Under the pieces are notes generated by a model, which did not search any database, was not told the DNA's origin, and saw only the letters and a list, made by a program, of their open reading frames with translations. Shown here piece after piece: positions 39,210-55,059 of a stretch of DNA of 64,000 nucleotides. The position numbers were made by a program, and so were the translations under genes. Source of the DNA: an uncultured Gammaproteobacteria bacterium. GTDB lineage: Bacteria; Patescibacteriota; Microgenomatia; UBA10105; UBA927. The stretch covers positions 1,183 to 65,182 of the forward strand of contig CAZQTD010000004.1 in assembly GCA_964596355.1 (NCBI GenBank), in the 5' to 3' direction. Position 1 is the stretch's first letter. The number at the start of each line of letters is the position of its first letter.

Positions 39210-39252
39210 TCTTCTATTGTTCCTAGTTTGCTAATAATTGTCAACTTCTCCT

Positions 39253-39891
39253 TTACACTGCGCCTTTTCCCGATATCATCGCCCAAGGGCTTTTAAGAAG
39301 AATCACGATGTCAAGCATGAGCGACCGTTTCTTTACATAATCTGCGTCAAGCTTGATCCTCTTGTCAAAATTTACCTCGCTTCTTCCTGATACCTGCCAG
39401 TAGCCGGTAATGCCCGGCTTTGCCGACAACACCACCTTAACCAGCTCCTTTGTGTGAGGGTACTTGCGCTGCTGCTCAACCAGTTCATCAGGATAATACG
39501 GCCGAGGGCCAACAAGACTCATGTCTCCCAGAAGAACGTTGATAAACTGCGGTATTTCGTCAAGCGAATGTTTCCGGATGAATCGTCCGACTCTCGTCAC
39601 CCGCGGGTCTTCACGCAGTTTATAGCTGTTGCGCTTATACACTCCGTACAATTTCGCAAGCTTCGGATCGCTTCTCAATTTCTCGTGTGCGCGGATAACC
39701 ATGGAACGGAATTTATAGAGCTTGAAAAGTTTTCCGTGTTGCCCAACGCGTTGCGGCGTATCAGCGAGAATCGGCCCGGGACTATCAAGTTTAATGGCAA
39801 TTGCGGTAGCCAAACAGAGAGGCAAACACAGAATTCCCAAAATAATGCTTCCCACAATATCAATAAGCCGTTTAATAATAGAATAGAGCAT
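39253..39891 (-). CDS. small monotopic phosphoglycosyl transferase (bacterial sugar transferase, PglC/WbaP C-domain type)
   Basis: 212 aa. Re-entrant N-terminal helix, then KLDSPGPILADTPQRVGQHGKLFKLYKFRSM and LVGPRP. Confidence 0.85.
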   Translation of the reverse strand: MLYSIIKRLIDIVGSIILGILCLPLCLATAIAIKLDSPGPILADTPQRVGQHGKLFKLYKFRSMVIRAHEKLRSDPKLAKLYGVYKRNSYKLREDPRVTRVGRFIRKHSLDEIPQFINVLLGDMSLVGPRPYYPDELVEQQRKYPHTKELVKVVLSAKPGITGYWQVSGRSEVNFDKRIKLDADYVKKRSLMLDIVILLKSPWAMISGKGAV

Positions 39892-39899
39892 ATAAACAA

Positions 39900-40982
39900 T
39901 TACGTCAGGTGATCGTTTTCCGTGCCGCGCAATCCTTCCACAAGGTTTTTAATCTTTGCAACAGAACTCTTTTTACACACCAACACCACGTCGCTGGTAT
40001 TGACCACCAGCATATCTTCCAAATCAATGGTTGCGACTAGTTGCGTCGTATAGTTATACACAAGGGAATCCTTCGTATCTGTCAAAAGCACTTTGCCCTG
40101 CGTGACGTTTTTGTCTTCAGCTTCTTCAAGCGCTTCTTTGAGAGCCTCCCATGCGCCGATATCGCTCCATTCGATGTTCTCGGCAATAACAAGCGCGTCA
40201 GACGGATTAAGTTTCTCCAATATCGCGTTATCAAAGTTTATTTTTTCAAGTGTGGGATAGATGTCCTGCAACAAGTCGCTGAATCGCGCAGTACGCCATG
40301 CGCGAACGATACGCGACAATCCCTGATATACGTTTGGGGCGTGCCGACTGTATTGCTGCCATAAAAAAGAAGGCGTCGTCACAAAATATCCCACGTTCCA
40401 CGCATGGTGGCCGCTTTCAAAATACCGCTTGGCAGTCGCCTGATCAGGTTTATACTGAAAATCGATGAACGCGTGAAAAGAAATAGTATTTTTTTGGAAA
40501 ACTTCCCTGCCGTACTGTATCCACCCCAGATTGACACTCGCAAATCTCGGCCGTTGCGCAACGAACACGATTTTATTCTGCTCATTGGCGACAAATGCAC
40601 CGGCGGTTTTACATATTTTACGAAACAGCGCATCTTGTTTGACCAAATGATCGCTCCAGAGGATAACCATCGGTTCATGAGGAGCTTCCTGCATGAGAAT
40701 TCCGGTCATCAACCCCACAGCAGGCCCCACGTCGCGCATCTCCGGCTCGCCGATCACGTGATCGGCAGGCAAATCGACAAGCTGCTCCTGCACGGTTGCA
40801 ACATGCGCTTTCCCAGTTGCGACGTACATGTCTTTCCACGCAAAATCAGGGCGAAGCCGCATCGCGGCAAGTTGCAATGTGGATTTGTTTCCGACGATTT
40901 TTTCAAATTGTTTGGGTGACTTTTTGCGCGAAAGGGGCCACAGCCTTGTCCCCGCTCCACCGGCAAATATGACTGCTTTCAT
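39900..40982 (-). CDS. manC: mannose-1-phosphate guanylyltransferase-like sugar nucleotidyltransferase
   Basis: 360 aa. MKAVIFAGGAGTRLWPLSRKKSPKQF matches the ManC/GMP N-terminal signature. Confidence 0.75.
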   Translation of the reverse strand: MKAVIFAGGAGTRLWPLSRKKSPKQFEKIVGNKSTLQLAAMRLRPDFAWKDMYVATGKAHVATVQEQLVDLPADHVIGEPEMRDVGPAVGLMTGILMQEAPHEPMVILWSDHLVKQDALFRKICKTAGAFVANEQNKIVFVAQRPRFASVNLGWIQYGREVFQKNTISFHAFIDFQYKPDQATAKRYFESGHHAWNVGYFVTTPSFLWQQYSRHAPNVYQGLSRIVRAWRTARFSDLLQDIYPTLEKINFDNAILEKLNPSDALVIAENIEWSDIGAWEALKEALEEAEDKNVTQGKVLLTDTKDSLVYNYTTQLVATIDLEDMLVVNTSDVVLVCKKSSVAKIKNLVEGLRGTENDHLT

Positions 40983-42085
40983 GAAAATCTTTCAATTGTA
41001 GATTTCATTTCCTTTTTAAACCGATCGAGAGAAAACCGCATCGCATTGTTTCGACAGAGTGTACTATCATACCATGTATGTTCTGCCTTCTTCAACGCAT
41101 CAATAAGCGATGACACCCGCTTTTCAGGGAATAATATTCCTGTTTTCCCATCCTGAATAATTTCGGCGATACCGCTTTCTTTATACGCAATGACTGGTAT
41201 TCCGCATGCCTGCGCCTCCGCAGCTACGAGGCCGAAATCTTCCTCACCGGCAAATACCAACGCTCGACAATTTTGATAATAGTTAACAAGCTCCTCGTCT
41301 GTCAAATGACGGAAGATAAACTGCACATTCTTTTTCGCCCGCCGCATAAGCAATCTTCGCTCCAGTCCGTCGCCGATAACGACGAGAGGCCATTGTAGCG
41401 CGTTAAACGCGTCTATCACAAGATCCACTCGCTTATACCAAACAAGACGGCTAACCAATAGATAATACGCGCCGCTTTTCTTTGACCGCGCACGCCTCGG
41501 AGGAACAAATGTTTTTACATCTGCCGGCGGATAAATGACAGCGTCAACCTCCCGATGATAGTACGATTCAATGCGCTTCTTCACACGCCTGCTTATGGCA
41601 ATATAGCGATCCGGACGCGATGCTCCAATGACGTCCCACCGCTTGAGTGTCGGCAGAAGACGCCGGTAGACAGTCCTCGATAACAACGAGGGAACACCGA
41701 TGTGCGCGCGTTCATAGGAGTTGGATTCGCTCCATAAATACCGCGTCGGGGTAAGGCAATAACATACGTGAACGGTTTCAAGCTTTGTAATGATATCCTT
41801 CGCCTCCGCGCTTGTTACAGAAAGAACAACGTCGTAGGAATCGAACGAAAAGGATTCAAACGCCATGGGAGTCAGCCATGCGTACCACTCGTGACGCGAA
41901 GCGGCAAAAGGCAGCATCTGAATAAAGGAAGGGTGAACGCGAAACACACGAGCCCACGAAGCTTTCCTCCTGTCATAGACAGCAGTATAAAGCGGCGCCT
42001 TAGGCCAAATTTCGTGAAGAGCCAAAAGCACGCGTTCAGCGCCTCCGAATTTATTGACGCGATCGTATACAAACGCAATATTCAT
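40979..42085 (-). CDS. GT4 (GT-B) glycosyltransferase
   Basis: 368 aa. N-domain FGGAERV. C-domain EEDFGLVAAEAQACGIPVIA, an E-x7-E-like region. Confidence 0.8.
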   Translation of the reverse strand: MNIAFVYDRVNKFGGAERVLLALHEIWPKAPLYTAVYDRRKASWARVFRVHPSFIQMLPFAASRHEWYAWLTPMAFESFSFDSYDVVLSVTSAEAKDIITKLETVHVCYCLTPTRYLWSESNSYERAHIGVPSLLSRTVYRRLLPTLKRWDVIGASRPDRYIAISRRVKKRIESYYHREVDAVIYPPADVKTFVPPRRARSKKSGAYYLLVSRLVWYKRVDLVIDAFNALQWPLVVIGDGLERRLLMRRAKKNVQFIFRHLTDEELVNYYQNCRALVFAGEEDFGLVAAEAQACGIPVIAYKESGIAEIIQDGKTGILFPEKRVSSLIDALKKAEHTWYDSTLCRNNAMRFSLDRFKKEMKSTIERFS

Positions 42086-43191
42086 GATCGAAACACCGTT
42101 TCATAGACAGACAGCGTATCGGCCGCCATCTTGCTCCAATTGAACCTCGATATAATCGCTTGCGCGTTCATTCGCACCGCAGCTGCCGCGGGTCGTTCCT
42201 TTTCCATCGAAATGAGAGCGTCGGCAATCGCGCGTGGGTTTCTTGCATCAACGTACGTTGCAAGCCCATTAAGATGCTCGTGAAACACAGGAATATCAGA
42301 ACAAATAACCGGACACCCCAATGCCAGCGCTTCAACAGCAGGCAGTCCGAATCCCTCCGCAAGCGATACAAAAACCAGAGCAATTGCGTTTGAATACAAG
42401 GCCCGAAGCTGCGCATCAGTTGCGTGCCCAAAAATAATTACGTCGGTCGTTACATTCATCTGCGAAATAGTATCACACAGTCGTTCATAAAAATAATCGC
42501 GCGTCCCAACAATAATGAGCTTCGCCGGTTTGACGCTTTGCATCCGGTAGATGGCATAGGCTTTAAGAAGCGTATTGAGATTTTTATGCGGATACGCGTT
42601 GCCCACATAGAGAAAATAGCGTGAAGGCAATCCTGGAATCCGCCGCGGGGTTCCCACAAGCGAAGGATCAACCCCCTCCCGCGTGATCCAAATTGCGCCG
42701 GGATCAACACCAAACTCGCGGACAATATCATCTTTAACTGTTTGCGAAACAGTGAGAAGAGCGGAAGCGTGACGAATCCCATGACGCAACACGACTTCGT
42801 ACCCGAAGCGTTTGATCGCGTATAGAAACGGGTGCCGCGTGGTAGCCAATCCTGTGTTGAAGTGTCGTATCGTCAGATCGTGTATCGTCAAAATATATGA
42901 ACCTCCATAAAGAACCGGCGCGTTAAAGTAAGGTACGTGCAATACATCAAGCTTTTCGCGTCTATAGAACCACGGCATGATAAGCTGTTCAAGCGCCGTG
43001 TGCCATCGAACCGGGGCCTTTCGTTTTTCCCAACGGCTGTTAGGAACCTGAAAGGCATCAAACGCATCGGTATAAAGGAACACGACATACCGATTCTTCC
43101 TGTCTATACGAGAAAGCTCTCGGATAAGGTTTCGGATGTAGCGCCCAACGCCGCTTTGCGAAATGAGCCGTGCATCAATGCCAATTTTCAT
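42082..43191 (-). CDS. GT4 (GT-B) glycosyltransferase
   Basis: N-domain IGIDARLISQSGVGRYIRNL. C-domain EGFGLPAVEALALGCPVI. Start at MKIGIDA; the longer ORF would overlap the next gene by 73 nt. Confidence 0.8.
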   Translation of the reverse strand: MKIGIDARLISQSGVGRYIRNLIRELSRIDRKNRYVVFLYTDAFDAFQVPNSRWEKRKAPVRWHTALEQLIMPWFYRREKLDVLHVPYFNAPVLYGGSYILTIHDLTIRHFNTGLATTRHPFLYAIKRFGYEVVLRHGIRHASALLTVSQTVKDDIVREFGVDPGAIWITREGVDPSLVGTPRRIPGLPSRYFLYVGNAYPHKNLNTLLKAYAIYRMQSVKPAKLIIVGTRDYFYERLCDTISQMNVTTDVIIFGHATDAQLRALYSNAIALVFVSLAEGFGLPAVEALALGCPVICSDIPVFHEHLNGLATYVDARNPRAIADALISMEKERPAAAAVRMNAQAIISRFNWSKMAADTLSVYETVFRS

Positions 43192-43196
43192 GACCG

Positions 43197-44096
43197 TTAG
43201 AGCGACAACGTGGTCACAAGCGCAATCCGTAGCCGCAAAAGCAACAATACCATAATCCTTACAATCCAAGGGTAGGCATTGCGATAATGTTTTTCATAAA
43301 AAAGGATCATTGCCTGATAAAAATGCTTCGTCGTCTGCTTTCGAATCTTCGCATCACGACTTTCTCTGCCGCTTTGTTTTTTGTAATGGACAACCGATGC
43401 GTAAGGGTTAAACCAAACTTCCCACCCGTGCGCCTTTATTCGATACGCCCAGTCGAGATCTTCTCCGTACATAAAATACGCCTCATCTAGAAGTCCCACA
43501 TCGCGCACTGCCTCTTTTCTAACCATAAAAAACGCACCGCTTGGGCAGTCTATTGTATGCGGCACTGTCATATCTTTATATCCTTGGTGATATTGCCCGA
43601 ACAATTGTGATTGTGGGAACAATCGCTCAAGTCCCAGAAAGTACGTCAGCGCCGCCCAAGGCGTAGGAAATCCTCTGTGACACGCAAGGTCCATCCGACC
43701 GCTGGCCAAAGTTACAGCGCACGTGGCGATCCCTGCGCGCTTGTGTTCATCCATAAACGCCACCATATCGCCGATGGTGCGGGCATGAACCTTGGTATCC
43801 GAATTAAGAAGGAGAATGTAGCGACCCGTTGCCTTCTTTATCGCAAGATTGTTGCCGGCCGCAAACCCGCTGTTTCTTTCATTGACGATCAGGCGAATGC
43901 CTTCAACAAGCTTTAACGCTTCAACACTTCCGTCGGTAGATCCGTTATCCACGACAAACACTTCCCATCTACCGCCTTGCCGTTGCGCGTTCCGAAGCGA
44001 AGAAAGACAGCGCAACACGAGCTCCTTTGTATTGTGATTGAGAATAATAATGGAAACGTCAACCGTGCGTTTCATGCGCGCGCCTCCAGACGTCAT
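43197..44096 (-). CDS. GT2 (GT-A) glycosyltransferase
   Basis: 299 aa. VSIIILNHNTKELVLRCLSSL and FVVDNGSTDGS with a DxD-like region. Confidence 0.8.
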   Translation of the reverse strand: MTSGGARMKRTVDVSIIILNHNTKELVLRCLSSLRNAQRQGGRWEVFVVDNGSTDGSVEALKLVEGIRLIVNERNSGFAAGNNLAIKKATGRYILLLNSDTKVHARTIGDMVAFMDEHKRAGIATCAVTLASGRMDLACHRGFPTPWAALTYFLGLERLFPQSQLFGQYHQGYKDMTVPHTIDCPSGAFFMVRKEAVRDVGLLDEAYFMYGEDLDWAYRIKAHGWEVWFNPYASVVHYKKQSGRESRDAKIRKQTTKHFYQAMILFYEKHYRNAYPWIVRIMVLLLLRLRIALVTTLSL

Positions 44097-45249
44097 CGAG
44101 TGTTTTTGCGATCAAATCCCAAGCGAATTCTTTCTCTATTTTCTTTCTGGCTTTTTTTACAAGAACGCTAACCCATCGGGGATGTTCCAAAAGCTGTGCA
44201 CTTTGTCGTACAAAATCCGCAGAATCCTTGGCAATGAGAATTTCCTCGCCATGCTGCACATTAAGTCCCATCGCGCCAATCTTTGTGGTGACGACGGGAA
44301 TGCCGCACGCCATCGCCTCCAGTATCTTATATTTCGTTCCTCCGCCGATCCGTATCGGAGCAAGAAGAACATCGCTTGAATGGAACACGCTGGCGATATC
44401 ATCAACGTCAGTACTAAGTTTAATGTTCTTGCTGCCGGCAATCTCCCGCAGGTACTTCGGCGGCCGCTTTCCAACAATCAGAAGGTTCGCGTTTGGATAC
44501 GCGGAAATAAGAAGAGGCCAAATGTCGCGCACTATATAGCCAACGGCGTCGCGATTCTGCATCCACGCAAAATTTCCGACAAACAGAAACGTCGGCGCCT
44601 TGCCGACTTTTTTGGGTCGAAAATTAAAGTGCCGCACGTTTACCCCGTTTGGAACAACAGATACGTTGCTTCTGCCAACAACATTGTCAATACAACGCTT
44701 GTCATCGTCAGAGACTGCCGTGATGTGGGTTGCCCGCCGCCAAACGAACTGCTCCCACTGCTTCAATTTGCGAACATCCTGCACAAGGATCGGACGAAGC
44801 GGCGTGAAGGGAAAATGATTCGCGTACTGCTCATACACGGCGTGTTCTATATTGTGTTCCCCAACAACGAAAGGCGTCTGAATTGTGGGCAAAGACGGCC
44901 ACACATACCCCGGCTCGATATGAATAACATCGTACGATGTGGAGGCGATCGCCCGAGCGATCCGTTCGCGCATGCGCGCGATGTCATACGTAGCGAAAAC
45001 AAACGGGTATGGCCCGCTCATTGATCTAATAATATACTGCAGTTGCCACGCGCGCCCTCTATAGACGGTTGCAACATCGTGGCAAAATGCCAGCTGGGAC
45101 AAATATCCGAGCTCCTCTTGGTGCCGAATGAACGTATAAAGATCAATCGTATGCTTCCGGCTAAGTATTTGTAGCAGATTATATACACGAATCTGACCGC
45201 CCGAATATAGCGGATACGGCAGCACCGCCGAGACAAAAAGAATCTTCAT
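44059..45249 (-). CDS. GT4 (GT-B) glycosyltransferase
   Basis: 396 aa. MKILFVSAVLPYPLYSGGQIRVYNLL is a GT4 N-terminus. GGTKYKILEAMACGIPVV in the C-domain. Confidence 0.8.
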   Translation of the reverse strand: MKILFVSAVLPYPLYSGGQIRVYNLLQILSRKHTIDLYTFIRHQEELGYLSQLAFCHDVATVYRGRAWQLQYIIRSMSGPYPFVFATYDIARMRERIARAIASTSYDVIHIEPGYVWPSLPTIQTPFVVGEHNIEHAVYEQYANHFPFTPLRPILVQDVRKLKQWEQFVWRRATHITAVSDDDKRCIDNVVGRSNVSVVPNGVNVRHFNFRPKKVGKAPTFLFVGNFAWMQNRDAVGYIVRDIWPLLISAYPNANLLIVGKRPPKYLREIAGSKNIKLSTDVDDIASVFHSSDVLLAPIRIGGGTKYKILEAMACGIPVVTTKIGAMGLNVQHGEEILIAKDSADFVRQSAQLLEHPRWVSVLVKKARKKIEKEFAWDLIAKTLDDVWRRAHETHG

Positions 45250-46691
45250 TGCTTTTTTGTAAGATCAATGATGACGAACGTGTCGTTTTTCATAAGAACC
45301 GTGTACGTATCCATAAGCGTCATGATTTCACCATCTTTGTCTGCCGGGGCAACAGAGATATAATGAGTTGCGCCCATTCGTATTTTCTCATCGATGTCAA
45401 AACCAATCGGCCAACCCTGACGCCGCGTCTGATAAAGAAACGTCGTATCTCCGCCGTATGGAGCAATCACTTTCGCGTCTTCCGGCAACAGCGTGTCTGC
45501 GGCACGTCCGGCTTCGACAATTTCTGGCTTATTTATCCAATAATAAGTCCGCACCGTGTACCATGAAAACGTGATCATGAATGCAAAACTGATGGTCGCG
45601 GTGCCAATACAAACAAGCCGATTCCCTTTCTGCGAGTTTTTCAGAAGTGCTGCTATCCCCACACCGACAAATGAACTCACCATCGGAATGAGAAGTACTT
45701 GATAATAATCATGCTGCACGTTGCCGGACGCAAATATTATAAGGTAGGCAAGTGCGCCCGCCAGCCATAGATACAACAACGCCCTGTTTGACATGCCGGG
45801 CTTTGACACCAAACCAAACCCAAACAGGATTAATCCCCAATATCCTAAAATTAGCTCGCCGAGCCGTTTGGCAAACAACCAATAAAACCACGCGCCCTTA
45901 AACCTGATGCCGTTTCCGTTGAAAAGCCACTCATAGGCGGGAATTCCTTCAGGAAACTGCAGAATCCACCGGCGCCACCAATAAAGAGCCGATACGCAAA
46001 TCAACGAGTAAACAGCCAACAAAATACACGAACTGCGCGAAAGGCCCAATCTGCGCAAGATTAAATACGGCGCGGGCAACAGAAGAAACGCGGCAGTCGG
46101 TTTGACAAGAAGCGCAACCGCGCCGCACGCTGCGGCTACAAAAAACACGACCGTTGACGTTACGCCACGGCGGTCAAACGCAAGTAGTACGAGGCTTAAG
46201 AGCGCCCAAAATACCATGAACGTATCCGGCAATATAGCCCTGCCGTAAAAAACGCTGTACGGCAGTACCGCCATCGTGACAGCCGCCCAAACACCAACCC
46301 ACGGATCAACGACCGCGAAAAGCAGGAGTCCCAAAAGAAATACGCTTGCCGATGAAGCGAAATTATTGACAAGCCGAAGCCACACCTCAATCGGCAGCAA
46401 TCCGATGTGTCGAGCAAGAAATGCTGCAAAGACTTGATACAGCGGAAATTCCACCATGCGCCAGCCCATTGGATTGTCTTTGCCCGACTGGATATTAGAA
46501 AGATCATCGTACCGGGGTCGCAGCGGGTCAATGCCGAACTTCAGATAATTTCTGGCAACCGCCGCCGTATCCGATTGTCGCCAGCTGTGCCAATCGGCAA
46601 GGGGCGCAGTTAATCGGTACAGTCGCAAACCAAACGCCACAAGCGCGACGCTTGCGAGTATCACAATATGAATGGTGCGGTGTTTTTTCAT
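45246..46691 (-). CDS. GT-C fold polyprenyl-phosphate-sugar-dependent glycosyltransferase, ArnT/PMT (family 39/83-like)
   Basis: 481 aa, about 11 TM. First periplasmic loop HSWRQSDTAAVARNY and C-terminal soluble domain, an architecture typical of ArnT/PMT_2 proteins. Confidence 0.55.
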   Translation of the reverse strand: MKKHRTIHIVILASVALVAFGLRLYRLTAPLADWHSWRQSDTAAVARNYLKFGIDPLRPRYDDLSNIQSGKDNPMGWRMVEFPLYQVFAAFLARHIGLLPIEVWLRLVNNFASSASVFLLGLLLFAVVDPWVGVWAAVTMAVLPYSVFYGRAILPDTFMVFWALLSLVLLAFDRRGVTSTVVFFVAAACGAVALLVKPTAAFLLLPAPYLILRRLGLSRSSCILLAVYSLICVSALYWWRRWILQFPEGIPAYEWLFNGNGIRFKGAWFYWLFAKRLGELILGYWGLILFGFGLVSKPGMSNRALLYLWLAGALAYLIIFASGNVQHDYYQVLLIPMVSSFVGVGIAALLKNSQKGNRLVCIGTATISFAFMITFSWYTVRTYYWINKPEIVEAGRAADTLLPEDAKVIAPYGGDTTFLYQTRRQGWPIGFDIDEKIRMGATHYISVAPADKDGEIMTLMDTYTVLMKNDTFVIIDLTKKQ

Positions 46692-49600
46692 CTGTTTGTC
46701 CCCTCGGAACGAGTATCAACTTCAACCAACAGCCGCTTGAGCTGCAGATCTTCAAAGATAAACACTTCTCTGTTATACCTATTAAACACGTGTGGATAGC
46801 TGAATGCTTCCTTTGCGCTTGAAACTGAAATCGTCGTAAATGTAAACGGATTTAATCGAAATACGTGCCACAGCGCGTCGCCCAAACCGGTGGGAAATAT
46901 CCAAGCGCGCCCGTATCGTATCGGCGTATTCACGAATATGAATCCCCTGTGGTTTGACAGCGGAAAATATTCTTTCCGCAGCTGCAGTATCGACTGCTGT
47001 GACACCCGGCTTGCCACAGCCCAGTCATCTTTGAGGCGAAACGATTCACGGTAATTCCAATATATAACGCTGACAATGATCATCAACGCAATCACTTTTA
47101 CATGGAGCGTCTCTTTCTCCCATATACGCTCAACGACGATCCCAAGCGCGATGCACAAAAATCCGGACGGGATAAACGCGTAGCGCTCCGCCATGCCGCC
47201 TAAGCCTGCATACGCGGCCAGCGACACAATGCAAAGGAGCAGAAAGACAGCAGGCGCCCGCATTTGACCAATAAATCGCCGCATTGCTCTGGCGACAATG
47301 ACAAAGCACGCCAAAACCAACACGCCGCCGCCTGCCACCAGCTGTTTATTTGTTCTAAAAGACGCGCGAAGGAACTCCCAGTGCTCAATGACTCTTGGCC
47401 CGCCGAATATGGCGGCAAGGTACCCCGAGGTATTTGCCAGGGCGTTGACAAACAGTGTTTCAATTTTATACCCGTAATCTCCAGAGGGAACTACAGCTCC
47501 GGCGCTCGTCCGCATCAACCAGTAAAGGGGCATAAGAAGGAGGAGCCCATGGTGCCATCGTCCTTTTTGTTGATATCGAAGGAGTCCCAAGAGCCATACA
47601 AGTAAAGGAGCAACCACCATGCCATCATACGAAAGCATGGAAACAAAAAGAAGAAGCGTTGCAAGCGGCAGGATGAGGCCTCTGATGCTCCTCCCCTCCT
47701 TCCAAAGCAACTGGTGACAATAAATGCTGCCAAAAAGCGCAACGAACGCCAGCATGCTGCTTTGGCCCGATATCCAGTACACGTTTTCGTGGTGAATCGA
47801 CAGTATCGCAAAAACCGCGCTACCGAGGAGGGCAAGCGGTCGACGCACCCCTTCATTGCTGGTAATTACGTAGATGAGGATGACGGAAAGCGATAATAGT
47901 ACCAGCGACATGAAATGGTAAGGCCCGGGCTTGAGCCAAAACAGCGAATACAACACAACATACCACAGCTTTGGAATAGGCCGGTAGAAAAACCCCTGCG
48001 CGCTTGTAAACAGCGTCGGGATTTGCTGGATGTTCGTCTCTGTAGCCCATTTGAGCCACGTAAAATCATCGGCAATAAAATACCACGGTAGTATGAACGC
48101 GAATATCGCCATCACACCGATCACAAGATAAAGAATAAGGGCAATCTGGTGCGTCAGCGTGCGTTTCAAAAGCTCACAATACTCGCGTATCGTCTGACCG
48201 TGCGGTCCAAGCGAGCCCAGCGCAATTCCGAGCATGAGCCAGAAGGAAAATGCGACCTTTGACGCCTCAAATACGTCAATCAGGATCGCGTTGCACAGCA
48301 AACCGGTTAATCCAGCGTACACGCCGATGGCAAACGATCTGGGAAGCCCGGTCACAATAGCTAACTGCCGAAAGAAAAACACGTACGCGGCAATAAAGAT
48401 GCCAAGGAACGCAATCGAGCCTGCAATCCCCGTTTCTCCCAGCATCCGCAGATAATCACCGTCAGCGGCAACAGAAAGAGTGGAAAATCCACTCCCCAGA
48501 AGGACGTCGCGCCTAAACGCTGTGAACGCCTTTGGCCACTGTCCCTGAAACCTTGTGGTAAGCGATATGTCATAAACAAACGCCTTTTGGATAAGGAAAC
48601 TCCCCGACACCGTTGCGATCTCCCCCGATCCTGTCGCGAGACTGCTTGCGGTGTAGTACTCAATGGCGTTAACATTATTGCGAGGCGATGAATCCGTATG
48701 AATGCCGATAAATTCGCTTCCTTTGGGTAAATCTTCATGCGCCGGCGACTCAATCTGTTCGACGAGTGCGCGTGAACCCTCCAGCTTGTCGAGCGTGCCG
48801 ATGGGTTTACCGCTTGATAAATCGACAACAACGTTTTCGTAACGGAATGTTTTATAAAACCGTTCCGATGCCTCGCCCACAAAATTCATGATTATAAAAC
48901 TCGCGATGATGACGGGAATGATAAGCACTCGCTTTTTCTGCCACACGAGCATTGCGCTTATCGCAATAAGGTACACGCCGAACGATACGCGCGACGCTGT
49001 CAAAAGAAGAAGAACAAGACCAAAAACCGCAAGAGTAAAAAAGACAAGCTTGTGCCACACGCGCTTCATCGCAAACACCATGCTCCCGAGAATCGGAATA
49101 ACCAACACAAGGTATGCCCCCAAATCGTAGTGTCCTCCAAACGTGGAAGGAATCCGCGCAGTCGGCGGAAGCCTAAGCGGAATGCCCTTGGCGAACTCCT
49201 CATTCATGGTGAGAAACGCCGGCAGTCCCAAAAACTTTTGTCCAAACCCGTACAAAATTATGAGAAGCACCGTCACGGCAATAACCCACACGGACGCACG
49301 AAAAATTCCGCGGTTGCTTTTTACCGCGTAATACCCGAGGAAAAAAAGGATCATGTATTCAATTCGCCGAAGAAAATGAAGGATTGCAAGATGCGGATGA
49401 AAATTTACGATATGTTTGCTGGTGGCAACGATAGAGACAATAACGACGACAACTCCCACCAGCCAATACGTCACGATCGGCCACGTAAGCGGCGTTGACG
49501 GCATCGTACGCGTACGGATCAATCGAACCGCAAATCCTGCCGCAACCAACGCGACGAGAAGGTCTTCAGCGCGGATGTACACCCATGTGTGGACGATGTC

Positions 49601-49699
49601 CACAATCGGGAGCTTGGGAAACAGCGGAATAAAAAAGAGGAAAAAAAGCGCGCTTACCGGAAGCAACCCGTCACTGATCCGACTGAAGAGCTTGTTCAT
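46688..49699 (-). CDS. fusion protein: O-antigen ligase/polymerase-like (Wzy_C) N-terminal half plus a second polytopic membrane domain
   Basis: 1003 aa, more than 20 predicted TM. A large extracytoplasmic loop precedes GSGFSTLSVAADGDYLRMLGETGIAGSIAFLGIF, a Wzy_C-type motif. The C-terminal 450 aa is a separate multi-TM domain of unknown family. Confidence 0.55.
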   Translation of the reverse strand: MNKLFSRISDGLLPVSALFFLFFIPLFPKLPIVDIVHTWVYIRAEDLLVALVAAGFAVRLIRTRTMPSTPLTWPIVTYWLVGVVVVIVSIVATSKHIVNFHPHLAILHFLRRIEYMILFFLGYYAVKSNRGIFRASVWVIAVTVLLIILYGFGQKFLGLPAFLTMNEEFAKGIPLRLPPTARIPSTFGGHYDLGAYLVLVIPILGSMVFAMKRVWHKLVFFTLAVFGLVLLLLTASRVSFGVYLIAISAMLVWQKKRVLIIPVIIASFIIMNFVGEASERFYKTFRYENVVVDLSSGKPIGTLDKLEGSRALVEQIESPAHEDLPKGSEFIGIHTDSSPRNNVNAIEYYTASSLATGSGEIATVSGSFLIQKAFVYDISLTTRFQGQWPKAFTAFRRDVLLGSGFSTLSVAADGDYLRMLGETGIAGSIAFLGIFIAAYVFFFRQLAIVTGLPRSFAIGVYAGLTGLLCNAILIDVFEASKVAFSFWLMLGIALGSLGPHGQTIREYCELLKRTLTHQIALILYLVIGVMAIFAFILPWYFIADDFTWLKWATETNIQQIPTLFTSAQGFFYRPIPKLWYVVLYSLFWLKPGPYHFMSLVLLSLSVILIYVITSNEGVRRPLALLGSAVFAILSIHHENVYWISGQSSMLAFVALFGSIYCHQLLWKEGRSIRGLILPLATLLLFVSMLSYDGMVVAPLLVWLLGLLRYQQKGRWHHGLLLLMPLYWLMRTSAGAVVPSGDYGYKIETLFVNALANTSGYLAAIFGGPRVIEHWEFLRASFRTNKQLVAGGGVLVLACFVIVARAMRRFIGQMRAPAVFLLLCIVSLAAYAGLGGMAERYAFIPSGFLCIALGIVVERIWEKETLHVKVIALMIIVSVIYWNYRESFRLKDDWAVASRVSQQSILQLRKEYFPLSNHRGFIFVNTPIRYGRAWIFPTGLGDALWHVFRLNPFTFTTISVSSAKEAFSYPHVFNRYNREVFIFEDLQLKRLLVEVDTRSEGTNR

Positions 49700-50537
49700 A
49701 GATGTCTACAAGACCGTTATTGCCAAAAACTTTGCCCGCCCCTATGGCGATATGGGCTTTCATCAAAAGCAGTACTTCAAGCAGCCACTGTTCTATTATA
49801 GAACGATGCTTCCGGTAATAGTACCGAAGACCGCGGAATATATTAATCACCGGCGTTTTTTTTGTGCCGCTGCTGGCTGCTCCGGTATGAATAAACTGCG
49901 CACTCGGGCAGAACAGCACAGTATAGCCTTTTTGCCGCGCGCGGTAAAGAAAGTCGATCTCTTCCATGTACATAAAAATGCCTTCGTCAAACAGTCCAAC
50001 ATCTACAAAGTCTGCCTTGGCGCCCATGAGGCATGCGCCCGAGACCCACGCAACGCTCCTTTGACTCCTTGGGCTGTACCTGGTAATACAAAGACTGTCT
50101 CCTTTTAGAAACAGCATGGCAAATATCACGGGCAACACATAGTCTGGACCGCACGAGGCCTGCGGTGTACCGTCCTCGTTATATAGCTTTCCCCCGACGA
50201 ACGATCGGGAATGCGCTTTTACACACCCCAGTAGGTTTTGAATGCCGTCAGGCATCACCTTTGTATCTGAATTGAGAAGCAAAACATACGTTCCCTTGGC
50301 TTCACGGATTGCCTGATTATTAGCTTTCCCATAACCAGTATTTTCATTATTGAATATCTTTTTAACTCGAGGATATTTTTTATTCAATAGTTCCATTGTG
50401 CCATCTGTTGACGCGTTATCCACAATAATAATTTCGTACGAGATCTGCGAGCCTCGAAGCGTTTCTCTGATCGAAGATAGACACCGATCGAGAAGTGTTT
50501 TTGTATTAAAACTAGGAATTATAATGGAAAGATCCAT
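49671..50537 (-). CDS. GT2 (GT-A) glycosyltransferase
   Basis: 288 aa. LSIIIPSFNTKTLLDRCLSSI and IIIVDNASTDGT. Confidence 0.8.
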   Translation of the reverse strand: MDLSIIIPSFNTKTLLDRCLSSIRETLRGSQISYEIIIVDNASTDGTMELLNKKYPRVKKIFNNENTGYGKANNQAIREAKGTYVLLLNSDTKVMPDGIQNLLGCVKAHSRSFVGGKLYNEDGTPQASCGPDYVLPVIFAMLFLKGDSLCITRYSPRSQRSVAWVSGACLMGAKADFVDVGLFDEGIFMYMEEIDFLYRARQKGYTVLFCPSAQFIHTGAASSGTKKTPVINIFRGLRYYYRKHRSIIEQWLLEVLLLMKAHIAIGAGKVFGNNGLVDIYEQALQSDQ

Positions 50538-50541
50538 GGGG

Positions 50542-51150
50542 TTACTGAAACAGTCGGGCGAATGTCAGCGTATACCGCAAATCCTTTTGGCGATGACCGA
50601 TCGGTCTTGCCGGCACGCCCCCAACGATTGTGTAGGGATCGACATCTTTGGTGACCACGGCACCGCTTGCAACCACCGCGCCTCTTCCAATATGAACGCC
50701 GGGCAGGATCGTTACCCGCGTACCGATCACCGCATAGTCGTCTATGACCACCGGCGCGGCCACTTCCTTGAACAAGGGATCGTTAATGTCATGCTCCATC
50801 GTAAAAATGCGCACCTCTCCTGCGATCGATACGTTACTGCCGATGCGAAGAGGTCGGTTGGCAGGAGCGATAAAATCTTTGAGGTATCCCCATACTTTAT
50901 TCTCCCCTTTTGCCCATACTCTGTATGATCGGCCGTCCAGAAACGCGTCGTTGCCAATTACTGTGTTGCTGCCTATTTCAATGCCCGACGGTTTGTTAAA
51001 CCGCGCAAGCCAGTGGATTGACGAGTCCCGTCCGATTTTCATGCGAAATACATATCGATAGAGAATTCGGCGTATGGTATGTGACGGGATAAGCCCGGTT
51101 AACGTTGCTAAAAAAACCCAGAGGTCAATAAAAAGTCTCATAAAAAACAA
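50542..51150 (-). CDS. hexapeptide-repeat (LbH) sugar O-acetyltransferase
   Basis: 202 aa. Repeated hexapeptides [13 protein letters not shown] and [24 protein letters not shown], WcaF/WbbJ-like. Confidence 0.8.
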
Positions 51151-51187
51151 TGGTTAGGTGGTTGAAGGGTCAGATGGTTAAAACCAT

Positions 51188-52339
51188 TTAACCATTCTTC
51201 ATACCCCCCACTTCTTCCAAGACGCGCAATGTCTGCGCGGCAGCTTTTTCCCACGTAAATTTCTTCGTTTGCGCAAGGCCTTCTGCGATGCGCCGTTTCC
51301 CCTGCATGAGGTTTCGCTCCCGCACCGACGTCAGAAGACCCTTGCAGATACTCGACGGACTAGCTGGATCCACATAGATCCCGGCCCTGCCTGCTATTTC
51401 CGGCAAACTTGAAACGTCACTGACGACCACGGGACACTTGTGCGCCATTGCTTCCAGAACCGGCAGTCCAAATCCTTCGTAAAGACTGGGAAGGGCAAAC
51501 GCAAGCGCGTGGTCGTAGAGAACCGATAATTCTGCGTCCGGTATGTAGTGCAGAAATTTTACCCTGTCAGCAACGCCATATGCCTTGGGAGCCGCGAGAA
51601 TGTCTTCATAAAGCCATCCTCTTTTTCCAACAATCACAAGATCAATGCTTCCAAACTTCTGCTTGTTCTCTTTAAGGAACAAAGAGAATGCTTTAATAAG
51701 CCGCGCAAAGTTTTTGCGCGGCTGAAGCGTCCCCACGGAAAGGATATAGTGATTACTGATATGGTAGCGCTCAACGACCGCGGTGCATGCTGGACGCTCA
51801 CCATTGGTTTTCATAGACATTCCCGGATACGTTACCACCACCTTCGTTTCCGGCACGTGGTACGCTTTGAGTATAGCACGTCTGGTAAACTCACTGATCG
51901 TCAGCACCTTTTGGGCTGTTTGTATGGAATACCTTGATCCCCGAGTGAGCTGATGCAGGTCTTTTGATCGAAACAAGCGCGGGAAGAAAAGGAACGAAAG
52001 GTCCATAATCGATATGACGCGAGGAATACTGACAAATCTGGGTGCATAATGCGTCGGAGAAAATATAACATCCGCTTTAGGCGTATCTCGTATAAGCGCA
52101 AGCGGTAATCCCAAAAAGGTCCACAGCTTTGCCGGTTGCACCACCTTGTATTGCCACCAGTCCGTTTCGCGTGGCATATCGTGCAAGGGTGAGTTGGGGA
52201 GGTAAACTCGAAAAACGTGTTCTGGCTTGCTTTGTGAACCCACACATCCATACACAGAACACAAGATGTTATACGCGTACTGTCCTATACCAACGCGGTT
52301 TACTTGATTTGCTTCATACCCGTCAATCGCAATGATCAT
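51188..52339 (-). CDS. GT4 (GT-B) glycosyltransferase
   Basis: 383 aa. N-domain IIAIDGYEANQVNRVGIGQYAYN. C-domain EGFGLPVLEAMAHKCPVV. Confidence 0.8.
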   Translation of the reverse strand: MIIAIDGYEANQVNRVGIGQYAYNILCSVYGCVGSQSKPEHVFRVYLPNSPLHDMPRETDWWQYKVVQPAKLWTFLGLPLALIRDTPKADVIFSPTHYAPRFVSIPRVISIMDLSFLFFPRLFRSKDLHQLTRGSRYSIQTAQKVLTISEFTRRAILKAYHVPETKVVVTYPGMSMKTNGERPACTAVVERYHISNHYILSVGTLQPRKNFARLIKAFSLFLKENKQKFGSIDLVIVGKRGWLYEDILAAPKAYGVADRVKFLHYIPDAELSVLYDHALAFALPSLYEGFGLPVLEAMAHKCPVVVSDVSSLPEIAGRAGIYVDPASPSSICKGLLTSVRERNLMQGKRRIAEGLAQTKKFTWEKAAAQTLRVLEEVGGMKNG

Positions 52340-52908
52340 ATCCCCGGATATATTACATGGACCTTTGATGCATCGATGTGTAATGCGTCAACGACGTCGC
52401 GTTTTGATGCCTGCGAATCGCACAATATGCTGCTGCACTCGCGGCTGACCCACTTCATACGGCGTTTTTGCACGGCCAAAATCTTTTTGTGAAAGCTTGC
52501 CGGAAACCGCAGCACGGCAAGATCGTGAATGGTCGTAACTCCTTTGGCATTAGCAAGTGGTGGCTGCGTCCAGTCGCTGCTCCAAAAGACATCCACGCGG
52601 CCGATAAACCATTCAATAGGTATCACGTGCAGGATATTCCATAAAACATCAAGAACTGTCGGCGGAATCGGTACAACCTTAAGACGGACTCTGCGCGAAT
52701 TAGCTTTGAGTGTTCGATAATACGAAAAGTACTCGTTGCGCCTTCGAAGCGATGAGGCAAATAGCACGTAGTCATTGTTTGTGTCAATGGCAACAAGCGT
52801 CGCTACCAGCTTTTTAACATAGGTTGCCACGCCGGTGCCTTCATACACAATCTGACTAATGTCTATTCCTATTCTCATACGTACCCCTCCGGATTCTCCT
52901 TGTGCCAC
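52336..52908 (-). CDS. GT4 N-terminal domain only (truncated glycosyltransferase, possible gene remnant)
   Basis: 190 aa. IGIDISQIVYEGTGVATYVKKL...TIHDLAVL...KVHVIYPGI ends exactly where the GT4 C-terminal catalytic domain should begin. It overlaps the start of the next complete GT4 by 4 nt (ATGA). Confidence 0.45.
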   Translation of the reverse strand: MAQGESGGVRMRIGIDISQIVYEGTGVATYVKKLVATLVAIDTNNDYVLFASSLRRRNEYFSYYRTLKANSRRVRLKVVPIPPTVLDVLWNILHVIPIEWFIGRVDVFWSSDWTQPPLANAKGVTTIHDLAVLRFPASFHKKILAVQKRRMKWVSRECSSILCDSQASKRDVVDALHIDASKVHVIYPGI

Positions 52909-53861
52909 TTCCAGGCTGTTTCAATAATCGTTGTGATGTCGGAGTATTGAGGTTTCCAGCCAAATTCTTTTTTCAATCTCGTCGGATCTGCTATGAGTGT
53001 ATGCGGGTCTCCTGCTCTGGGGCCCGCTTCTTTAACCAAAAAATCTACTCCGGTTATCCGTTTTACTTGAGCGACAACTTGACGGTTTGTCACGCCGGTG
53101 CCTGTTGCAACGTTATAGACGTCAGACGGATGGCCATGCATCAGCGCGTCAAGCGCCAAAAGGTGCGCGTCGCACAAATCCTCTACATGGATATAGTCTC
53201 GCACGCACGTCCCGTCGCTTGTGGGATACGTCGTGCCGTAGAGCATAAATTCCTTTTGCTTGCCGAGCGCGGTCTTGATGGCAAGGGGAATAATGTGTGT
53301 TTCAGGATTATGCGCTTCTCCGTGAGCGCCGTCAAGAGAAGCTCCTGCCGCATTAAAGTAGCGCAAACTTATGCTTCTAACATTGAAACTGCGATCAAAT
53401 ACCTTCAACAGCTCCTCAAAGCACCATTTTGAAAGCCCGTAGGGGCTTTCAGGATTCTTCGCATGATCCTCCGGTATAGGAACCTTCTGCGGATTGCCGT
53501 ACACGGCCGCTGTCGACGAAAAGATAATGGCATTAACATTGTGAGCGACCATGGACTGAAGGAGCGCAATAGGGCTAATAACGTTATTTTGAAAATATTT
53601 TTTGGGATCACGCACTGATTCCTCTACGAGCAAATAGCCGGCAAAGTGAATAACCGCATCAACCGTTGACGTGGAAAAAATTGAATCAATGAGCTGTTTG
53701 TCTGCGGTGTTGCCCACAACAAGCTTCGCCTTGGATGGTACGGCCTGTTTGTGTCCGTACTCCATCGAATCCAGAATGATCACCGTATCACCGCGGGCAA
53801 CAAGCATCCTGGCCATGTGGCTTCCGATGTAACCAGCTCCTCCTGTAACTAAAATCGTCAT
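52875..53861 (-). CDS. galE: UDP-glucose 4-epimerase
   Basis: 328 aa. MTILVTGGAGYIGSH, the YxxxK region in an SDR extended fold, and GalE-like C-terminal domain. Confidence 0.85.
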   Translation of the reverse strand: MTILVTGGAGYIGSHMARMLVARGDTVIILDSMEYGHKQAVPSKAKLVVGNTADKQLIDSIFSTSTVDAVIHFAGYLLVEESVRDPKKYFQNNVISPIALLQSMVAHNVNAIIFSSTAAVYGNPQKVPIPEDHAKNPESPYGLSKWCFEELLKVFDRSFNVRSISLRYFNAAGASLDGAHGEAHNPETHIIPLAIKTALGKQKEFMLYGTTYPTSDGTCVRDYIHVEDLCDAHLLALDALMHGHPSDVYNVATGTGVTNRQVVAQVKRITGVDFLVKEAGPRAGDPHTLIADPTRLKKEFGWKPQYSDITTIIETAWKWHKENPEGYV

Positions 53862-54097
53862 ACGCTACCGCGGGTCATCCGCCGCCCTGCAGCGATTTGC
53901 CAGAGAACGAATACCAAGAAAAACGAAGCAGCGTACCACGTTAGGCGCGTGGCGGTAAAAAATATCCATGCAGCGAAAAGCGGCGCCGAAAAAGCAAGGC
54001 TTACTAGCCCGGCATACACAAACAACCGAGGTTTCTTGCCGACGATCAGTACGATGGTGCTGATGATAAAAGCTATGTCCTGAAGTTTCATAATCAT
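53858..54097 (-). CDS. small 2-3 TM membrane protein of unknown function
   Basis: 79 aa. Hydrophobic segments IAFIISTIVLIV, LVSLAFSAPLFAAWIFF and AASFFLVFVLWQIAA. Sits between galE and the UXS gene. Confidence 0.4.
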   Translation of the reverse strand: MIMKLQDIAFIISTIVLIVGKKPRLFVYAGLVSLAFSAPLFAAWIFFTATRLTWYAASFFLVFVLWQIAAGRRMTRGSV

Positions 54098-55059
54098 AAA
54101 ACCTTTCGGTAATACTCGATGGTTTTTGTCAGCCCGTCATCGACAGATATCTTTGGCTCCCAGCCAAGCAGTTTTTTGGCTTTTGCAATGTTGGGTCGCC
54201 GCTTCGTCGGATCATCTTCAGGCAACGTGCCGTAAACTATCTCCGAGGTTGATCGTGCCATCGACGTAATTTTTTCCGCAAGGTCTATAACCCGATACTC
54301 CTCTGGATTCCCCAGATTTATGACTTCTCCTTTGGCGCAATCGGCAAACAGCAGTTTCACAATGCCGTCCACAAGATCAGAAACGTAACAAAACGACCGC
54401 GTCTGCGAGCCATCGCCGTACACGGTGATTGGTACACCTTCCAACGCTTGGTTTATAAAATTGGAAATGACCCGGCCGTCGGTTTTACGCATCCTGGGAC
54501 CATACGTATTAAATATCCTCATAATTCGGCAATCCAGATCGTACTTTCGTACATAGACCATCGTCATTGCTTCGCCAAATCGCTTGGACTCATCGTAGCA
54601 CGAACGCTTACCGTTTGGGTTAACGTTTCCCCAATACGCTTCCCTCTGCGGGTGCTCCTTGGGATCGCCGTACACCTCGCTCGTTGAAGCGTAGACGAAC
54701 CTCGCTTTCGTATTTTTGGCAAGCTCCAGCATGTTGATCGTCCCCAGCGAATTGACTCTCGCTGTTTCCTCCGGATACTTCTGGTAGTCAATGACGGACG
54801 CGGGAGAAGCCAAATGCAAAATGTATGACACATTGTTCCATTGTTCCATTGTTTCATTGTCAAAAGGCAAGGAAACATCGTGATTGATAAATGTAAAATT
54901 TGGATTCTTCTGTGCCTCCTTGAGGTTGTCACGGCTGCCGGTAATGAAGTTGTCTATCGCAACAACGCGATACTCCTGTGCAAGAAGGGCATCCACAACG
55001 TGTGATCCGATAAAACCCGCACCGCCGGTCACGATTGCTATTTTCATATCCATAGTCAT
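54094..55059 (-). CDS. UDP-glucuronate decarboxylase (UDP-xylose synthase) family SDR
   Basis: 321 aa. IAIVTGGAGFIGSHVVD, DNFITGS...NPNFTFINHDV and CYDESKRFGEAM are UXS hallmarks. Confidence 0.8.
   Translation of the reverse strand: MTMDMKIAIVTGGAGFIGSHVVDALLAQEYRVVAIDNFITGSRDNLKEAQKNPNFTFINHDVSLPFDNETMEQWNNVSYILHLASPASVIDYQKYPEETARVNSLGTINMLELAKNTKARFVYASTSEVYGDPKEHPQREAYWGNVNPNGKRSCYDESKRFGEAMTMVYVRKYDLDCRIMRIFNTYGPRMRKTDGRVISNFINQALEGVPITVYGDGSQTRSFCYVSDLVDGIVKLLFADCAKGEVINLGNPEEYRVIDLAEKITSMARSTSEIVYGTLPEDDPTKRRPNIAKAKKLLGWEPKISVDDGLTKTIEYYRKVL

Follow-up and report, generated by a model that had tools for sequence, protein, structure and literature searches.

A two-module membrane protein of Microgenomates joins a divergent Wzy_C-like domain to a predicted GT-C_A-fold glycosyltransferase within a conserved glycan operon

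Can two lipid-carrier-dependent glycosyltransferases (GTs) be built into one polypeptide and serve one surface-glycan pathway? The question is raised by a gene for a 1003-residue membrane protein in a 64,000-nucleotide stretch of contig CAZQTD010000004.1 (assembly GCA_964596355.1; hereafter the window, numbered from its first letter), which comes from the Microgenomatia lineage of the Patescibacteriota. Bacteria of the candidate phyla radiation (CPR), to which this lineage belongs, are uncultured and their cell envelopes are almost unknown. Herein, the gene was found to encode a genuine and conserved fusion of a Wzy_C-like module (N-module) with a module whose predicted fold is that of GT-C_A enzymes (C-module). 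With moderate confidence, based on sequence comparison and structural models, the product is proposed to carry two extracytoplasmic active sites that act in the same pathway.

The open reading frame (ORF) starts with ATG, fills 46688-49699 exactly on the minus strand, and its translation contains VVDLSSGKPIGTLDKLEG, GSGFSTLSVAADGDYLRMLGETGIAGSIAFLGIF, IADDFTWLKWATETNIQQIPTLF and YDGMVVAPLLVWLLGLL, the peptides quoted in an earlier note on this DNA that had reported the frame without its strand. According to a hydropathy scan and an AlphaFold2 model, the first half comprises about ten helices, which form a bundle (aa ~1-497) interrupted by a conserved loop at 160-190 and by a poorly hydrophobic loop of about 140 aa at ~277-418; the latter is the extracytoplasmic loop that had been described in that note. 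A second helical bundle starts with a transmembrane (TM) helix at 518-536, so that the domain boundary lies at ~497-518 rather than at about 560, where it had first been drawn and where it would cut off TM1 and the DD motif of the second module. The C-terminal 450 residues had likewise been taken as a TM domain; this holds for the bundle from 518 onward but not for the last ~90 residues, which are beta-rich (strands 918-996) and non-membrane. The linker between the bundles carries modelled helices at 504-515, is weakly conserved among 24 orthologues, and is the site at which two natural split versions (L084 and L088, below) are cut. The features of the gene are as follows.

46688..49699, minus strand: whole gene of the fused Wzy_C-like and GT-C_A-like membrane glycosyltransferase, 1003 aa plus stop (ORF list, translation, full-length homologues)
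48209..49699, minus strand: N-module, aa 1 to ~497, assigned as a divergent Wzy_C/O-antigen-ligase-superfamily domain with a putative WaaL/RodA-type GT-C arrangement (hidden Markov model (HMM), hhalign, Foldseek)
48446..48871, minus strand: large loop of the N-module, aa ~277-418, predicted to be extracytoplasmic (invariant columns, non-hydrophobic)
48989..48991, minus strand: codon of R237 in the motif TASR, aligned with the essential, invariant R215 of E. coli WaaL (hhalign)
48461..48463, minus strand: codon of D413, apparently at the WaaL His338 position (manual motif alignment)
48149..48208, minus strand: variable basic linker with an amphipathic helix, aa ~498-517 (low conservation, model)
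46967..48148, minus strand: membrane part of the C-module, aa ~518-911, predicted GT-C_A-fold glycosyltransferase (AlphaFold2 and Foldseek)
48065..48070, minus strand: D544-D545, DD motif, candidate catalytic base (invariance, position after TM1)
46691..46966, minus strand: C-terminal beta-rich domain of ~90 aa, aa 912-1003 (strands at high pLDDT)

Whether such a protein exists at all is the first matter to be settled, since a sequencing frameshift or a misassembly could also have merged two genes into one long frame, and the halves do appear as separate genes in some database entries. A search of ~5.8 billion proteins returned at least 1594 relatives. The best 120 of these are 959-1010 aa long, cover 95-100% of the query and are 48-67% identical to it; the identical sequence is also present among the relatives, and those that are named belong to Patescibacteria/Microgenomates. 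In a scan of one genome per GTDB species, a relative was found in 257 species genomes, with named representatives in Gottesmanbacteria, Woesebacteria, Levybacteria/Levyibacteriota and the 'Microgenomates group'; in the best 80 of these genomes, to which all detailed locus counts below refer, the match extends from residue 1 to ~990, with 33-54% identity. The best matches of the two halves lie in a single uninterrupted frame in 80/80 loci, and no conserved stop or frameshift stands at the junction. Because all 120 best relatives, drawn from many independent assemblies, are full length and all 80 loci keep one frame, the artefact is refuted and its remaining chance is negligible. The covalent fusion of two unrelated polytopic domains, as the earlier note had put it, is therefore real, and it is old; the rarity expected there is relative, given that the fusion is the rule within Microgenomates, with a relative in at least 257 species genomes. 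In the 24-orthologue alignment, invariant positions are dense in both halves and the linker is variable.

Natural split versions show how the modules relate to each other. When 1.84 billion cluster representatives were screened with a C-half profile (aa 500-1003), 43,413 of them matched at E<=1e-3, 8,085 at E<=1e-10 and 116 at E<=1e-30. Among these are fused proteins of ~1000 aa as well as shorter ones of ~450-540 aa, whose similarity begins right at the N-terminus. Four short relatives (P0147, L084, L088 and L086) were inspected within their contigs. L084 is a true split, in which an N-like gene of 535 aa and two stop codons in the linker are followed by a C-like gene of 467 aa with a fresh ATG and then by a PMT_2 gene. 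L088 is another, with genes of 524 and 457 aa that overlap by ATGA; their products are 38% (N-part) and 26% (C-part) identical to the window protein, and the operon reads GT4, GT4, hexapeptide acetyltransferase, GT2, N, C, PMT_2, GT4, GT2. Both belong to a more distant clade (26-38% identity). The case of L086 (528 + 516 aa), whose two genes overlap by 11 nt in an A-run, is ambiguous: either a true split or a frameshift would account for it.

P0147 was rejected as a split version, as both called genes share one frame and are separated by a lone TAG at the codon of invariant Glu478, inside the N-module (L003 2991-2993, motif LIDVFEASKVAF), which is a nonsense change or a sequencing error. Gene callers break L003, a metagenomic relative, at this in-frame TAG into a 'Wzy_C' protein of 474 aa and another protein of 534 aa. 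Short 'stand-alone' database entries of the family can thus be artefacts like that of L003, or fragments at contig ends.

The earlier note had asked for split and fused versions to be compared in related genomes, and the comparison is informative: in the true splits the modules are adjacent, co-oriented and placed in the operon slot used by the fused gene. The two modules are separable yet function together, because they are fused in the main Microgenomates clade and encoded by adjacent co-oriented genes where they are split. Fusion and splits combined constitute Rosetta-stone evidence for a Wzy_C-type en-bloc transferase and a GT-C_A transferase acting jointly, which could help in studying the numerous pairs that are not fused in other bacteria.

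The nature of the second module is best approached through its fold. The AlphaFold2 model of aa 500-1003 reached a predicted local distance difference test (pLDDT) score of 89.6 and a predicted TM-score (pTM) of 0.89. Foldseek against the PDB matched it at probability 1.0 to GT-C_A enzymes only (STT3, Pmt4, AglB, PglB, ALG12, AftB and ArnT), with yeast and human STT3 among the matches and STT3 7oci_F as the best (E 2.7e-4); DPY19, AftD and AftA followed. GT-C_A enzymes have a common TM1-7 module with two juxtamembrane helices after TM1 and an essential catalytic Asp at the tip of the first of these helices, present as a DD motif in AftB (PMC12041299, PMC12203961). The model likewise contains a TM1-7 module in which TM helix 518-536 is followed, ahead of TM2, by two juxtamembrane helices (545-554 and 562-565) and then by more TM helices. 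Directly after TM1, 8-9 residues past its end and at the start of helix 545-554, lies D544-D545 (YFIADDFTWL), which is invariant in the 24 orthologues; in 30 more distant relatives, D60 of the motif is invariant and D59 is at least 90% conserved. Further invariant polar residues of this half are R573-P574, H595, H636/E638, D741-Y742 and R839. Since the confident fold matches coincide with an invariant DD where GT-C_A enzymes keep their catalytic Asp, the C-module is predicted to be a GT-C_A transferase.

No established sequence family captures this module. DUF6056 at E 2.6 was the only Pfam hit of the C-half and NCBIfam gave nothing relevant, so that no GT-C model of either library (PMT_2/GT39, ArnT/GT83 or other named families) matches it significantly; the C-half profile found no significant match among PDB sequences, and hhalign against the single sequence of E. 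coli ArnT gave E 0.008 at a probability of 5%. Among 30 stand-alone C-half relatives, two match PMT_2 and one GtrII (Glucos_trans_II), and none matches a GT-C model of NCBIfam. The C-module thus represents a large GT-C family outside Pfam and NCBIfam coverage that is recognisable by fold and motif.

The earlier note had surmised that the fusion couples glycan transfer to a second modification or to translocation. The former fits a GT-C_A-type C-half with an intact DD motif. The latter would make the C-half a transporter or flippase that moves the lipid-linked glycan for the N-module, and it draws on the polytopic nature of this half and on an operon in which no Wzx-like flippase was recognised. 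Nevertheless, all structural matches at probability >=0.9 are GT-C glycosyltransferases, MFS, CLC and MurJ appear only at probability <0.25 with TM-scores <=0.19, and the invariant DD after TM1 is a GT-C catalytic signature, which leaves a transporter very unlikely indeed.

A more serious contender, credible though still unlikely, concerns the donor. The protein could be a polymerase-ligase fusion, in which a Wzy-type polymerase in the N-module is joined to an oligosaccharyltransferase (OST)-like C-module that moves the finished chain en bloc from undecaprenyl diphosphate (Und-PP) to a protein (S-layer protein or pilin) or another envelope acceptor. OST catalytic subunits are the best structural matches of the C-module (STT3, then AglB and PglB; E 2.7e-4 to 1e-3, probability 1.0), and their acidic motif likewise follows TM1; moreover, no LCP-type or other ligase was recognised among the window ORFs scanned, and a neighbouring PMT_2-like GT-C enzyme could perform single-sugar additions. 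Bacterial and archaeal OSTs, however, carry a WWDYG-type motif in a large soluble domain, whereas the terminal domain of the C-module has only ~90 aa as against more than 200, its sequence contains no WWD or WWDYG-like motif, and no sequence-level match to these enzymes was obtained. Furthermore, users of polyprenyl-phosphate monosaccharides (ALG12, Pmt4, AftB and ArnT) match about equally well, ALG12 with the better TMt (0.48) and root-mean-square deviation (rmsd 8.6), and Foldseek ranking among GT-C_A families at such scores cannot tell the donor type.

The preferred assignment of the C-module, to enzymes that use a polyprenyl-phosphate monosaccharide, is consistent with several further likenesses to this group (ArnT 5F15, Pmt1/2/4, ALG12/ALG3, AftA/AftB/AftD, and GtrII-type and GT136 enzymes that modify O-antigen). 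The predicted fold is the same (TM1, juxtamembrane helices, 7-TM core), the DD follows TM1 immediately as it does in AftB, the operon context is that of an Und-PP-linked glycan, and a few distant relatives match PMT_2 or Glucos_trans_II. In contrast to these enzymes, the C-module lacks a significant Pfam, NCBIfam or PDB sequence match and sits behind a Wzy_C module. A small extracytoplasmic C-terminal domain is also found in GT136 ORF12 and in Emb/AftD, where it carries a carbohydrate-binding module (PMC11127046). By analogy, the beta-rich C-terminal domain of the fusion protein, modelled at high pLDDT, may hold the glycan. Its invariant motif GRAWIFPTGLxDALWH (aa 930-945; 46865-46912, minus strand) includes part of the invariant set P926, R928, G930, A932, W933, G938, D941 and W944. 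The motif resembles the blade repeat of the Photorhabdus PLL/PHL beta-propeller lectins, GRxEVFxRGxDNALWH, at an E-value of ~2, which is not significant; the resemblance suggests a sugar-binding element.

The identity of the first module is less direct, as the Wzy_C score of the query itself is sub-threshold and the assignment needs homologues, profile-profile comparison and fold. The Wzy_C superfamily includes WaaL, Wzy polymerases, the PglL/PilO O-oligosaccharyltransferases and pneumococcal TacL. With TacL, the superfamily is shown to operate in bacteria lacking an outer membrane as well (PMC5727136). Wzy_C matches sixteen of the 24 orthologues at E<0.01, the best of them at E 4.1e-7, and a precomputed PF04932 match is recorded for roughly one in four of the homologues listed. 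The query also matches the NCBIfam IctB family TIGR00947, a Wzy_C-type family, over aa 51-253 (E 1.5e-5). In addition, an alignment of the N-halves of 26 diverse fused and split members was compared by hhalign with an alignment of 25 enterobacterial WaaL proteins found using E. coli K-12 WaaL. The two align over 221 columns (probability 65%, E 6e-5) and pair R182/R237/R280 with WaaL R161/R215/R265, all invariant in both families; the alignment stops short of the large loop. Only this run was informative, the family profiles giving weak or insignificant results against the single E. coli WaaL sequence. Foldseek of the full-length model matched WaaL 7tpg_B (probability 0.97, TMt 0.56) and also FtsW; the catalytic loops of the N-module are poorly modelled.

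Within the large loop, R280, D377, R383, W388-P389, G402, G404, D413 and R418 are invariant in the orthologue and N-half alignments, and R182, H190, D192 and R237 add to the invariant polar residues of this half. The G-x-G...Y-L...E-x-G-x-x-G block of the family is present. When the GxxG anchors were superposed by hand, D413...G424-x-x-G427 fell on WaaL H338...G349-x-x-G352, with all six residues invariant in their own family. Invariant D413 thus appears to occupy the position of the WaaL base His338, which lies in the last large periplasmic loop, by manual superposition rather than tool alignment, and no His stands there. In WaaL a His base is used where other GT-C enzymes use Asp or Glu (PMC12203961). 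The N-module is accordingly filed as a divergent Wzy_C/O-antigen-ligase-superfamily member and, because of the Asp, not as a WaaL-type ligase.

The same Asp, along with the weak Wzy_C score, might be read as a sign of decay, such that catalysis is confined to one module, with the other degenerated into a scaffold for binding the lipid carrier or for positioning its partner, as the inactive subunits of hetero-oligomeric GT-C complexes do. This is distinctly unlikely: both halves are dense in invariant polar residues in predicted extracytoplasmic loops across orthologues of 33-67% identity, a pattern expected of active sites rather than of scaffolds, and D413 itself is invariant.

The likeness of the N-module to WaaL (E. 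coli K-12; C. metallidurans, PDB 7TPG) thus lies in a polytopic domain whose last helices are preceded by a large extracytoplasmic loop, in the profile homology with its three aligned Arg residues, one of them equivalent to R215, and in the Foldseek match to 7tpg. It differs in scoring below the Pfam cut-off, in a longer and very strongly conserved loop, in the apparent Asp at the His-base position, and in its fusion to a second transferase. Organisms of this kind are not known to possess a lipid A-core acceptor.

The genomic setting bears on whether the two modules serve one pathway. All window genes lie on the minus strand, and the fusion gene belongs to a conserved cluster whose relevant features are listed here.

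37239..55059, minus strand: conserved glycan operon (Pfam/NCBIfam matches; order as in locus L001 and across the 80 loci)
49671..50537, minus strand: upstream GT2 glycosyltransferase (Pfam Glycos_transf_2; collinear in 73/80 loci)
45246..46691, minus strand: downstream 481-aa polytopic protein, a predicted second GT-C enzyme, PMT_2-like (in 78/80 loci; orthologues carry PMT_2)

In window coordinates the operon reads DUF4012 protein, small phosphoglycosyl transferase (Bac_transf/WbaP-type), ManC, GT4, GT4, GT2, GT4, PMT_2-like protein, the fusion gene, GT2, hexapeptide acetyltransferase, GT4 (two ORFs), GalE, a 79-aa membrane ORF and a short-chain dehydrogenase/reductase (SDR) resembling UDP-sugar dehydratases/decarboxylases; several unassigned polytopic proteins are also present. 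The 3' end of the upstream GT2 gene overlaps the fusion gene start by 29 nt, and the stop of the fusion gene overlaps the start of the 481-aa gene (ATGA). In tblastn searches of the 80 loci with the window proteins, the neighbours between the upstream GT4 pair and the downstream GT4s, both included, proved to be present, collinear and co-oriented in 69-78 loci, and the operon is conserved across Gottesman-, Woese- and Levybacteria. It adjoins RecO, a class II tRNA synthetase and the division and cell-wall (dcw) cluster (MraW, a penicillin-binding protein (PBP), Mur ligases, MraY, FemAB, FtsW, FtsA and FtsZ).

The 481-aa protein has no Pfam match of its own; its orthologues in L001, L084 and L088 carry PMT_2, and it is 34% identical to the PMT_2 protein of L088. 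By these sequence relationships, the operon encodes a second putative GT-C enzyme beside the fused one. No sequence similarity between this protein and the C-module was detectable, with family-profile hhalign being weak or insignificant, and phmmer among the other ORFs of the window found no paralogue of either half.

Taken together, these data support the following scheme. The phosphoglycosyl transferase and the GT4/GT2 enzymes of the operon would build an Und-PP-linked oligosaccharide in the cytoplasm. Outside the membrane, the N-module would pass on this oligosaccharide en bloc, to another repeat if it is a polymerase or to the final acceptor if it is a ligase. The C-module most probably would attach sugars singly, from a polyprenyl-phosphate-linked donor, to that glycan or its acceptor; since ManC and several GT2 enzymes are encoded in the operon, one candidate sugar is mannose. 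The small C-terminal domain may hold carbohydrate. Both a 1:1 ratio of the two steps and their proximity would be ensured by the fusion or, in the minority of genomes with split versions, by neighbouring coupled genes. Both ends of WaaL-type proteins, and the N-terminus of GT-C_A enzymes, are cytoplasmic; from these established topologies we infer that both catalytic loops face outward and that the linker is cytoplasmic. That the modules serve the same pathway is suggested by the collinear operon, the start/stop overlaps with both neighbours, and the adjacent coupled genes of the split versions.

Related arrangements have been described. Extracytoplasmic GT-C enzymes modify Und-PP-linked glycans in three-component systems, some of them with a C-terminal carbohydrate-binding domain (PMC11127046). 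In such systems (GtrA/GtrB/Gtr*; C. youngae ORF12-15), a GT-C enzyme decorates the Und-PP-linked polymer outside the membrane before or around ligation (PMC11127046), and the window operon resembles them in holding GT2 enzymes and a small membrane ORF. The difference is that their GT-C enzyme is a separate protein, not fused to a polymerase or ligase.

Several points weigh against the proposal of two active sites in one pathway. Wzy_C (PF04932) has no match at E<1 on the full-length protein, and on the isolated aa 1-560 it matches aa 223-431 at E 0.0028 and 17.9 bits, below the gathering cut-off of 31.7 bits; the identification made in the earlier note thus stands through homologues, hhalign and Foldseek but not through the HMM score of the query. 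The catalytic loops of the N-module (aa 160-190 and 275-418) have pLDDT below 50, and no PDB sequence was matched significantly by the protein itself or by profiles of its full length and its N-half. The catalytic His of WaaL is seemingly replaced by Asp, and sequence does not discriminate between a polymerase and a ligase. For the C-module, the Foldseek TM-scores of 0.4-0.5 with large rmsd indicate the same fold class, not a close relative. Regarding donors, three GT2 genes lie in the operon, two of them with a single hydrophobic segment near the C-terminus, and with NCBIfam, whose matches are generic, none could be assigned to GtrB/ArnC/DPM1 or singled out as a polyprenyl-phosphate-sugar synthase. 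Neither a Wzx/MOP-type nor a GtrA-type flippase was recognised among the window ORFs scanned, so the supply of both donors is assumed.

A bolder version of the proposal is quite unlikely. It casts the fusion protein as the core apparatus behind an envelope glycopolymer that would define the Microgenomates lineage and might be essential to it, working as an alternating-donor assembly line in which a WaaL-like site with an Asp base acts on an Und-PP-oligosaccharide and a GT-C_A site on an undecaprenyl-phosphate-linked sugar. If true, polymerisation or attachment would be combined with decoration in one complex, a mode undescribed for cultured bacteria.

Both enzyme classes, and the extracytoplasmic decoration of Und-PP-linked glycans by GT-C enzymes, are already known. 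No paper on this fusion, or on O-antigen-ligase-like proteins in Patescibacteria, was found in the literature. The covalent fusion as a conserved state of a whole CPR lineage, the Asp-for-His exchange in a WaaL-like site and the C-module family outside the family libraries appear to be new. The fusion gene serves as a marker of the conserved operon, which comprises ~15 genes, adjoins the dcw cluster and probably builds a major surface glycan of Gottesman-, Woese- and Levybacteria. The manual alignment points to a WaaL-like lineage in which the catalytic His has given way to Asp. There is also value for annotation, as such proteins are now labelled 'hypothetical' or just 'O-antigen ligase'.

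Further observations were made on the cluster. Between the GalE and SDR genes, the 79-aa ORF (53858-54097, minus strand) has two to three hydrophobic segments, and L001 has a 73-aa ORF at the counterpart site; judging by sequence, it may be a small flippase-like or regulatory membrane peptide. One GT4 enzyme seems to be encoded in two pieces, a 190-aa ORF (52336-52908, minus strand) with only the N-domain of Glyco_transf_4, followed by a 383-aa GT4 (51188-52339, minus strand). The pair is found in L001 as well and is kept in 69-77 of the 80 loci, so that it is probably stable and not the result of an error. At the upstream end of the cluster, three large polytopic proteins without a Pfam family are encoded on the minus strand: 55069-56937 (622 aa, at least 12 hydrophobic segments), 56939-58780 (613 aa, weak NCBIfam MmpA-family match, E 3e-9) and 59826-62708 (960 aa). 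One of them could be the missing flippase, or they could be further GT-C enzymes.

Many metagenome-assembled genome records that carry the operon are titled 'uncultured Gammaproteobacteria', 'Pseudomonadales', 'Lysobacterales' or 'Sulfotelmatobacter' (L004, L005, L011, L049, L071, L079 and others). These records share a Microgenomates-type operon with 6-14 of the cluster genes of the window, and their titles are probably placeholders or wrong taxonomy.

The rest of the window is largely dcw region (1-34222, minus strand), encoding MraW, a PBP2/3-type transpeptidase, several Mur ligases, MurA, a GlmU-like protein, MraY, a FemAB-family transferase, a DegT-type aminotransferase, FtsW, FtsA, FtsZ and a class I tRNA synthetase. 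A second SEDS protein (3672-4757) and a DUF2079 membrane protein (7720-9177) are encoded there on the same strand.

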